Positions 11,445 through 11,473 of a stretch of 45,245 nt of DNA are shown one piece after another. The stretch's first letter is position 1. Each line of letters starts with the position of its first letter. The stretch lies in the sequence record PQ435593.1; one strand, given 5' to 3'. The notes below the pieces were generated by a model that searched no databases, was not told where the DNA came from, and saw nothing but the letters and a program-made list of their open reading frames with translations. The DNA is from Escherichia phage vB_Eco_K-01. Both the position numbers and the translations under genes were made by a program.

Positions 11445-11473
11445 TTGACAAGTGAATAGTTCGCTATTATAGT
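11445..11473 (+). promoter_or_regulatory. promoter with embedded palindromic operator
   Basis: TTGACA, 17-bp spacer containing AATAG-ttcg-CTATT, then TATAGT; drives the gene at 11502. Confidence 0.55.

Follow-up and report, generated by a model that had tools for sequence, protein, structure and literature searches.

The window, that is, the whole 45,245-nucleotide stretch of DNA from Escherichia phage vB_Eco_K-01 (sequence record PQ435593.1) that was analyzed, carries on its minus strand a gene for a 71-residue XRE-type, Cro-like protein (11165..11380), which runs into a terminator at 11156-11176. Two predicted promoters diverge from the region upstream of this gene and overlap each other. 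The putative XRE promoter (TTCACT-N16-TAAAAT, 11429..11456, minus strand) matches the sigma-70 consensus at 9 of 12 positions. The opposing promoter (TTGACA-N17-TATAGT, 11445..11473, plus strand), designated type A promoter 1, is predicted to drive a gene that starts at 11502 and the recombination genes that follow. A 14-bp palindrome, AATAGNNNNCTATT (AATAG-N4-CTATT), occupies positions 11455-11468 within type A promoter 1 and is referred to as O1. O1 abuts the -35 hexamer of the predicted XRE promoter, with its center at about -39.5. A weaker site, O2 (AATAG-TACC-ATATT, 11411..11424), covers the predicted XRE start point from about -2 to +12; this is the degenerate copy, AATAGTACCATATT at 11411-11424, that the preliminary description had correctly placed upstream of the XRE gene. 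What does this palindrome do, and which protein reads it?

The window is closely related to Escherichia phage vB_EcoS-phiEc3, a Kagunavirus of the subfamily Guernseyvirinae. Bases 8000-20000 are 100% identical to the reverse complement of the phiEc3 record, and a BLAST comparison of the whole window yields 96.5-99.99% identity across the aligned blocks, with about 2 kb unmatched at the tailspike gene. This part of the tailspike gene (20958-22919) is the sole long stretch that lacks a phiEc3 match, and the window therefore represents a distinct isolate in which the receptor-binding region has been swapped. Gene positions in the window were transferred from the phiEc3 annotation, whose 80 genes include no integrase, CI-type repressor, CII or RNA polymerase, in agreement with the earlier remark that an integrase is missing. 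The largest proteins are the tail, tape-measure, primase-helicase, DNA polymerase and tailspike proteins, and the window contains no RNA-polymerase-sized open reading frame that lacks an assignment.

The palindrome is a genuine dispersed repeat. Seven exact copies, starting at 6433, 7718, 11455, 14366, 18126, 31198 and 40644, are found in the window against 0.02 expected, and none of 100 shuffled windows reached seven. It is the commonest palindrome of the 5-N4-5 form in the window, the runners-up being terminator stems with at most three copies. All seven exact copies are embedded in sigma-70-type promoter-like sequences that each face the next gene, and all lie between the -35 hexamer and just past the -10 hexamer of consensus-type predicted promoters. 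The flanks are asymmetric (tgAATAG....CTATTat), and the orientation of the longer unit with respect to transcription is opposite in the two main promoter types, A and B. When one mismatch is allowed, the scan gains sites at 11411, 40553 and 42447. The copy at 42447-42460, AATAGCATACTATA, closely follows the terminator of the portal gene (42480..42465) and precedes the head-morphogenesis gene, with no convincing -35 hexamer nearby. The initial count of at least eight promoters holds for seven with the exact palindrome and reaches eight solely when degenerate copies are included, namely those at the XRE promoter and at two TTGACT promoters (3139..3111 and 40561..40533, minus strand). The palindrome had also been described as sitting exactly inside the 17-bp spacer, which is inaccurate: it shares its last T with the -10 hexamer in type A promoters and contains the entire -10 hexamer in type B promoters.

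In type A promoters, the palindrome fills spacer positions 5-17, starting 4-5 nt past the -35 hexamer, and is centered at about -18.5. The three promoters recognized previously at 11445, 14356 and 18116 on the plus strand score 11/12, 11/12 and 10/12 against the sigma-70 consensus and are the best or near-best matches (10-11/12) within the first 20 kb. Type A promoter 2 (TTGACA-N17-TATAGT, 14356..14384; palindrome 14366-14379) overlaps the last codons of the preceding open reading frame and is followed by the genes for SSB (ATG 14438) and DNA polymerase; orthologous sites are present in SE2, Otaku, GRNsp27 and AH01. Type A promoter 3 (TTGACG-N17-TATAGT, 18116..18144; palindrome 18126-18139) precedes a gene at 18178, a C5-methyltransferase gene and a SNF2-type helicase gene. 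The type A promoters thus head the recombination, SSB/DNA-polymerase and methylase/helicase operons. Each promoter is followed by a leader of 25-45 nt and a Shine-Dalgarno sequence.

The type B promoters (TTGCAC-N17-TACTAT) are likewise confirmed at all four positions listed earlier, 31182 and 40628 on the plus strand and 6434 and 7719 on the minus strand, against 0.01 occurrences expected. Here, the palindrome is placed 6 bp further downstream than in type A, starting 10 nt past the -35 hexamer with its center at about -12.5. TACTAT corresponds to palindrome positions 8-13, and N4 is constrained solely to end in TA, which completes the -10 hexamer. These predicted promoters score about 7/12 against the sigma-70 consensus, and the spacers across all sites range from 16 to 18 bp. 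In three of these promoters, TACTAT is preceded at a distance of 7 bp by an exact or 5/6 match to TATAAT, which was considered as the true -10 hexamer and was dropped because no consistent -35 hexamer lies 16-18 bp upstream of it.

Type B promoters head leftward small-gene blocks and two backward-facing cassettes of the structural module. The promoter at 31182..31211 (plus strand), whose palindrome (31198-31211) covers the -10 hexamer, is predicted to transcribe a reverse-oriented accessory cluster in the tail module (31253-33467; terminator 33472-33491) that encodes an Imm-like protein, a phosphoesterase and an acid phosphatase. The promoter at 40628..40657 (plus strand; palindrome 40644-40657) is predicted to serve a single reverse-oriented gene (40684-40887; terminator 40893-40913). 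Both cassettes end at terminators, and no other promoter candidate was found for either. The cargo of the latter slot varies among close relatives: the slot holds a 67-residue open reading frame here (40684-40887) and a DNA polymerase III sliding-clamp homologue in Shashou (L003 3357-3878), and the equivalent slots of AH01 and SE2 hold yet other genes. On the minus strand, the promoter at 6433..6462 (-35 6462..6457, -10 6439..6434, palindrome 6433-6446) lies upstream of a small gene with its ATG at 6402. The minus-strand promoter at 7718..7747 (-35 7747..7742, -10 7724..7719, palindrome 7718-7731) precedes a leftward small-gene block that starts at about 7684/7693, and it is kept in at least 30 IMG/VR loci.

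A third arrangement, type C, consists of a degenerate dyad over a TTGACT -35 hexamer. One such candidate promoter (TTGACT-N17-TATATT, 3111..3144, minus strand) lies past the endolysin terminator; its degenerate site ACGAGTTGACTATT (3131-3144) overlaps the -35 hexamer and has equivalents in SE2 (AATAGTTGACTAGT) and Shashou (ACTAGTTGACTATT). The second is a promoter-like sequence on the minus strand (TTGACT-N17-TAAGCT preceded by TGn, 40533..40575) that was recognized by eye and missed by the consensus scan. Its -35 hexamer is inside the one-mismatch site AATAGTTGACTTTT (40553-40566), which is adjoined by an everted sequence, AACTATTCGAATAGTT (40560-40575). The everted version that had been reported near 40567 is indeed present as CTATTCGAATAG at 40562-40573.

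The XRE protein contains a Pfam HTH_3 domain (2.3e-12), and a phmmer search against the PDB returns 434 Cro as the best match (E 5.4e-07, residues 6-68), with 434 repressor at 1.3e-05. Homologues are found in 501 phage records that span the whole subfamily. In the lambdoid phage CobraSix, a homologue with 39% identity is found in the place of Cro, and the OR of this phage consists of three 14-bp ACAG-N6-CTGT sites, one of which lies in the PR spacer and starts 1 nt past the -35 hexamer. The locus in the window therefore combines the elements of a Cro-type pair: a single-domain 434 Cro homologue of about 70 residues, a symmetric 14-bp candidate operator, and an overlap of this operator with both the putatively regulated promoters and the predicted promoter of the protein itself. 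O2 is kept in 37 of 37 Kagunavirus loci with three N4 variants, and 12 of 12 Jerseyvirus loci contain its counterpart there, AATAGTACAGTAAT. The distance from O2 to O1 is about 44 bp in Kagunavirus versus about 55 bp in Jerseyvirus, the latter being longer by 11 bp, or one helical turn. The XRE locus thus resembles a miniature lambda OR, and its geometry suggests both positive and negative autoregulation.

The conservation pattern of the XRE-divergent promoter provides a footprint of selection. In 37 Kagunavirus IMG/VR loci, which were retrieved solely with the XRE protein as a query, TTGACA, AATAG and CTATT are each invariant (37/37), whereas N4 occurs in six variants and the 4-5-nt linker between the -35 hexamer and the dyad in 11. 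Sigma-70 makes no base-specific contacts in the part of the spacer that holds the arms. Given that the arms are invariant where sigma-70 reads no bases, another factor must select them. Moreover, the register of the dyad shifts: in addition to the positions described above, it starts 7-8 nt past the -35 hexamer in SE2 (33752), Otaku (14798) and AH01 (45437/13345). Dyad symmetry in combination with a shifting register points to a dimeric repressor that would occlude RNA polymerase, and every register remains inside the stretch from -35 to -6. The variable register fits steric repression and suits neither a sigma contact nor a MerR-type activator. The latter was rejected on the grounds that it needs a spacer of 19-20 bp and a fixed register, whereas the spacers here are 16-18 bp and the dyad is centered anywhere from about -18.5 to about -12.5 or over the -35 hexamer.

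Does the motif follow the phage or the host? The recognition helix of the XRE protein and the promoter motif were compared across lineages. The Kagunavirus window (E. coli) combines the helix VSQGAINQ with AATAG arms (7 versus 0.02 expected), Jerseyvirus SE2 (Salmonella) combines VSQSLITH with AATAG/AATCG arms (6 versus 0.73), and Serratia phage Otaku combines VSQGMLNH with AATAG/AGTAG/AATCG arms (5 versus 0.41). No IMG/VR relatives of the Otaku XRE protein were found. In Pantoea phage AH01, the helix is MTQGGIGH and the motif is AATAC-N4-GTATT, with five exact and five one-mismatch sites versus 0.83 expected; these sites lie in orthologous promoters, the -10 hexamer of type B reads TAGTAT rather than TACTAT, and no exact AATAG dyad exists in this phage. 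The Cornellvirus-like phages GRNsp27/VSiP (Salmonella), with the helix VTQSAISH, contain no AATAG dyad and carry AATAC/ATTAG-type sites (4 versus 0.35, for a pattern that is partly post hoc). A PHIRE-like all-against-all 20-mer scan of GRNsp27 detected no dispersed promoter repeat, just enrichment of the degenerate pattern. Edwardsiella phage eiAU-183, with the helix LSRPFISQ, has one clear site, GTAAA-TTGA-TTTAC, 5 nt past the XRE-divergent -35 hexamer. Motif and recognition helix thus appear to change together across lineages, which would support binding indirectly.

Two features of this comparison are informative. Jerseyvirus and the Cornellvirus-like phages share Salmonella as a host, yet their motifs differ, making a host factor unlikely. 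Furthermore, the motif tracks the phage and changes throughout the regulon at once, which implies a cognate factor encoded by the phage. However, Kagunavirus and Jerseyvirus have identical arms although about four of the eight positions in their recognition helices are different, which counts against the XRE protein as the reader. A residue-to-base code that relates S or T in the helix to G or C in the arm was abandoned because Klebsiella phage VLCpiS11a does not fit it. This phage has an S-type helix and a local GATAC/AATAC-like site, and no dispersed motif was found in its genome.

The preliminary description had named two candidate binders, the XRE protein and an AlpA-like HTH protein. The helicase-primase operon opens with the AlpA-like HTH_17 gene (8162..8332, plus strand, 56 residues), and the promoter-like site in front of this gene (TTGCTT-N17-TATACT, 8104-8132) is devoid of the palindrome. 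Among the lineages examined, this gene is confined to Kagunavirus and Jerseyvirus, and tblastn detected no homologue in Otaku, GRNsp27/VSiP or AH01, in which XRE is instead the first gene of the helicase-primase operon. In Kagunavirus and Jerseyvirus, the operon (window 8072-11151) has the AlpA-like gene at its start and is convergent with XRE, whereas XRE is directly upstream of and co-directional with helicase-primase in Otaku, the Cornellvirus-like phages, AH01, VLCpiS11a and eiAU-183 (L004, L006, L007, L060-L062). These two arrangements imply a module inversion and a gene gain. Pfam revealed no other classical regulator in 30 small open reading frames, the nearest being a sub-threshold NinH-like protein. 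Three features favor the XRE protein over the AlpA-like protein, namely its homology to 434 Cro, its conservation across all lineages examined, and the strong and the weak candidate site that flank it; of the two original candidates, the XRE protein is retained and the AlpA-like protein, which is absent from lineages that bear the palindrome, is disfavored.

We therefore propose that the palindrome is the operator of a phage-encoded dimeric HTH repressor, which is most probably the 71-residue XRE protein (11165-11380); on balance, we consider this proposal likely to be correct. The earlier suggestion that one DNA-binding protein controls many dispersed promoters gains comparative support from the invariant arms, the free center and linker, the variable register and the regulon-wide change of the motif. 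From these sites, their promoter context and conservation, the homology of the protein and the co-variation across lineages, we infer binding, repression, autoregulation and timing as follows. After infection, host sigma-70 RNA polymerase would fire the near-consensus type A and type B promoters, with the three type A promoters expressing replication, recombination and DNA-modification genes and the four type B promoters expressing small early genes and the two backward-facing accessory cassettes. The XRE protein would be made from its own weak, divergent and overlapping promoter and, as it accumulates, would occupy each operator with one dimer and shut down all units together. Because the operators lie between the -35 hexamer and just past the -10 hexamer, bound XRE would block the polymerase.

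At its own locus, O1-bound XRE would block type A promoter 1 and free or directly help the XRE promoter, while the weaker O2 over the start point would cap XRE synthesis. The XRE locus would then represent a two-operator version of lambdoid OR. The type C promoters, which precede the genes for packaging and the head and have only degenerate sites over their -35 hexamers, would remain active for the longest time. Since the lysis and terS genes are downstream of the type B promoters at 7719 and 6434 on the same strand, full repression would require the candidate type C promoters for late expression. Such a circuit would exert temporal control within the lytic cycle, as had been suggested. In published RNA-seq data for the Kagunavirus K1B4, the sole such study of this genus, XRE and most other genes fall into one "middle" class, which is too coarse to reveal a shut-off.

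As an alternative, the dispersed palindromes could be bound by a different factor, be it a host transcription factor or a small protein of the phage that has escaped recognition, and the XRE protein would then regulate its own locus alone. The genome leaves room for such a factor, given that about 30 small open reading frames have no recognizable domain, and the XRE-linked palindrome is merely local in eiAU-183 and VLCpiS11a. However, the distal sites have the O1 sequence in each lineage and change with it, as in AATAG versus AATAC in AH01, and the different motifs of Jerseyvirus and the Cornellvirus-like phages in the same host species speak against a host protein in particular. We also know of no E. 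coli regulator with an AATAG-N4-CTATT consensus. A binder other than XRE is thus unlikely, although it is the alternative that we take most seriously.

The repeat itself is not new as a sequence. PHIRE analyses listed it as "Phage RNAP promoter" in fBC-Eco01, with the entries PP1-PP7 of Table S2 including O2 and a seven-copy consensus of tgAATAGTa-ccTATTat-T (PMC9825357), and as seven promoters in Golestan (PMC7203180). Both papers assign the repeat to a phage-encoded RNA polymerase (PMC9825357, PMC7203180). These "phage-specific promoters" are the same DNA element as AATAG-N4-CTATT, but the papers omit the dyad symmetry, the surrounding -35 and -10 hexamers and the link to XRE, all of which are noted here. 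Our literature search yielded no description of an operator or repressor in this subfamily. The operator reading would most likely correct the published annotation.

The published label belongs to a broader explanation that dispenses with a dedicated binder. The repeat could be a promoter cassette that is read by a phage RNA polymerase, or a duplicated sigma-70 module of promoter plus leader that has spread by recombination. The promoters and their 5' leaders do share sequence (..ACCAAACGAGAGG), so that a duplicated or recombined cassette may account for some of the repetition. The cassette also recombines: three Jerseyvirus loci (L051, L055 and L056) adopt the Kagunavirus leader right at the -10 hexamer. 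These junctions and the shared leaders suggest that cassette spread contributes to the repetition. However, the polymerase version fails because the annotation of the near-identical genome contains no RNA polymerase gene. In addition, PP5 corresponds to O2, whose position on the listed strand is not promoter-like, and the element is a dyad that is inverted between promoter types and placed within sigma-70 hexamers. Neither version accounts for the two-fold symmetry, the three to four registers relative to the -35 and -10 hexamers, the invariant arms beside a free center and linker, or the concerted arm change in AH01. We thus regard a promoter repeat without a dedicated binder as distinctly improbable.

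The same XRE network could also be read as a self-sustaining, CI-like silencing switch, in which O1-bound XRE would keep its own weak promoter on and block essentially every strong host-type promoter, providing a reversible dormant or carrier state without an integrase. We rate this extension as a long shot. If the carrier-state reading were true, it would concern a subfamily whose members are regarded as strictly virulent and serve in therapy and biocontrol. Serratia phage Eta, for which "unstable lysogens" were reported (PMC3918226), is uninformative about a carrier state because it shares structural genes alone and has a different early region. A lambdoid immunity region of a temperate phage (CI/Cro/OR-OL) was rejected as well, given that no CI, integrase or CII is annotated in phiEc3 and just two sites are present at the XRE locus.

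The AlpA-like protein is a very unlikely binder of the palindrome and timer of the other promoters: it is a DNA-binding HTH_17 protein that is 79-89% conserved between Jerseyvirus and Kagunavirus, which have the same arms, and its gene, with a site-free promoter, is classed as "early" in the K1B4 RNA-seq data, but homologues are absent from Otaku, GRNsp27/VSiP and AH01, where promoter palindromes occur in the same architecture, its 56 residues of HTH_17/excisionase-like fold leave no dimerization domain, and a MerR-type mechanism is at odds with the 17-bp spacer and the varying site position. The HTH_17/excisionase-like family typically binds direct repeats, as exemplified by 186 Apl.

The proposed XRE repressor is best understood by comparison with characterized phage systems. 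434 Cro is homologous to XRE, and both proteins are 71 residues long. The operators of 434 are 14-bp palindromes. Like the palindrome described here, they have arms of 4-5 bp and a sequence-free center and are located in the promoter core, a layout that is also observed for the lambdoid homologue of CobraSix. The arms are AATAG here in contrast to ACAA in 434. Furthermore, 434 has tripartite OR and OL regions (OR1-3, OL1-3), whereas each promoter here has one operator, and at least seven such promoters, including those of accessory cassettes, are scattered throughout a genome for which no CI partner, integrase or CII is annotated (phiEc3).

The resemblance to the lambda OR/PRM-PR region lies in divergent promoters with common operators. 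In both cases, the weak -35 hexamer of the repressor promoter adjoins a strong site from which the lytic promoter is blocked, as predicted here, and a weaker site over the repressor promoter would confer negative autoregulation, as established in lambda. The operator center at the XRE promoter (about -40) is close to that of OR2 at lambda PRM (-42). However, the XRE locus has two sites instead of three, its promoters physically overlap, one small Cro-sized protein would fill both roles, and activation is suggested by geometry alone. The use of one phage repressor at sites dispersed over the genome is reminiscent of phage P1 C1 and its operators and of mycobacteriophage L5 gp71 and its "stoperators", which likewise involve many genome-wide sites. 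P1 and L5 are temperate, their sites are asymmetric, and the L5 stoperators lie within transcription units, whereas the sites here have two-fold symmetry and are restricted to the promoter cores of a phage group that is regarded as virulent. In the most likely reading, this virulent siphophage has a 434-Cro-type repressor that acts through single operators within at least seven dispersed promoters of the host type, and the circuit is built around a lambda-OR-like autoregulatory core.

Guernseyvirinae (Kagunavirus, Jerseyvirus and relatives; about 500 sequenced) are common therapy and biocontrol phages that are considered strictly virulent, and their use as small chassis in phage engineering has been proposed. 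Hardly any work has addressed how their genes are regulated, and the one conserved regulatory repeat of the subfamily has been published under what appears to be the wrong label. If our proposal is true, a 71-residue protein and a 14-bp site would give simple and portable control over at least seven promoters. It would also explain how backward-facing accessory genes are silenced before late transcription crosses them, and the lineages would offer natural orthogonal repressor/operator pairs (AATAG versus AATAC versus GTAAA) for synthetic biology. The proposal also bears on safety claims: a genome-wide repressor is the one component that a "strictly lytic" phage would need for silent persistence.

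Several additional elements were noticed. An Rfam search of the whole window returned nothing at the promoters; its sole match is an int-alpA RNA (RF02996) at 31099-31163 on the minus strand (36.6 bits versus a gathering cut-off of 35.8). The matched segment separates the type B promoter at 31182 from the tail-assembly-chaperone gene (ATG 31074), at the point where the late operon has to start again beyond the backward-facing cassette. A non-coding element of about 175 nt, without an Rfam family, is present in two copies that are about 80% identical (window 7895-8075 and 40406-40580, minus-strand sense) and recurs elsewhere (L003 5554-5728 and 37483-37662; L002 23057-23201). Each copy begins with a promoter-like TTGACT-N17-(TGn)TAAGCT sequence. 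RNAalifold predicts a long-range helix with invariant G-U pairs and an inner hairpin whose stem varies and still pairs in four versions. Downstream of the second copy, an intrinsic terminator (40352..40333) closely precedes the spanin, scaffold and capsid genes. The element looks like a unit of promoter, leader RNA and terminator, possibly involved in antitermination.

The leaders show a mosaic history of their own. In the three recombinant Jerseyvirus loci mentioned above (about 3880-3900), the Jerseyvirus XRE gene, O2 and O1 are kept, and the Kagunavirus leader tagcccataccaaacgagagg begins immediately past the -10 hexamer. The promoter/operator is therefore a mosaic recombination junction between the genera. 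The 5' leaders of unrelated operons (for example, 11474-11501, 18145-18177 and 7718-7694) share a CA-rich motif, ..ACACCAAAC(G)AGAGG.., that may serve as a translation-enhancing leader or may belong to a shared cassette, and this motif is also found in SE2, Otaku, GRNsp27 and AH01.
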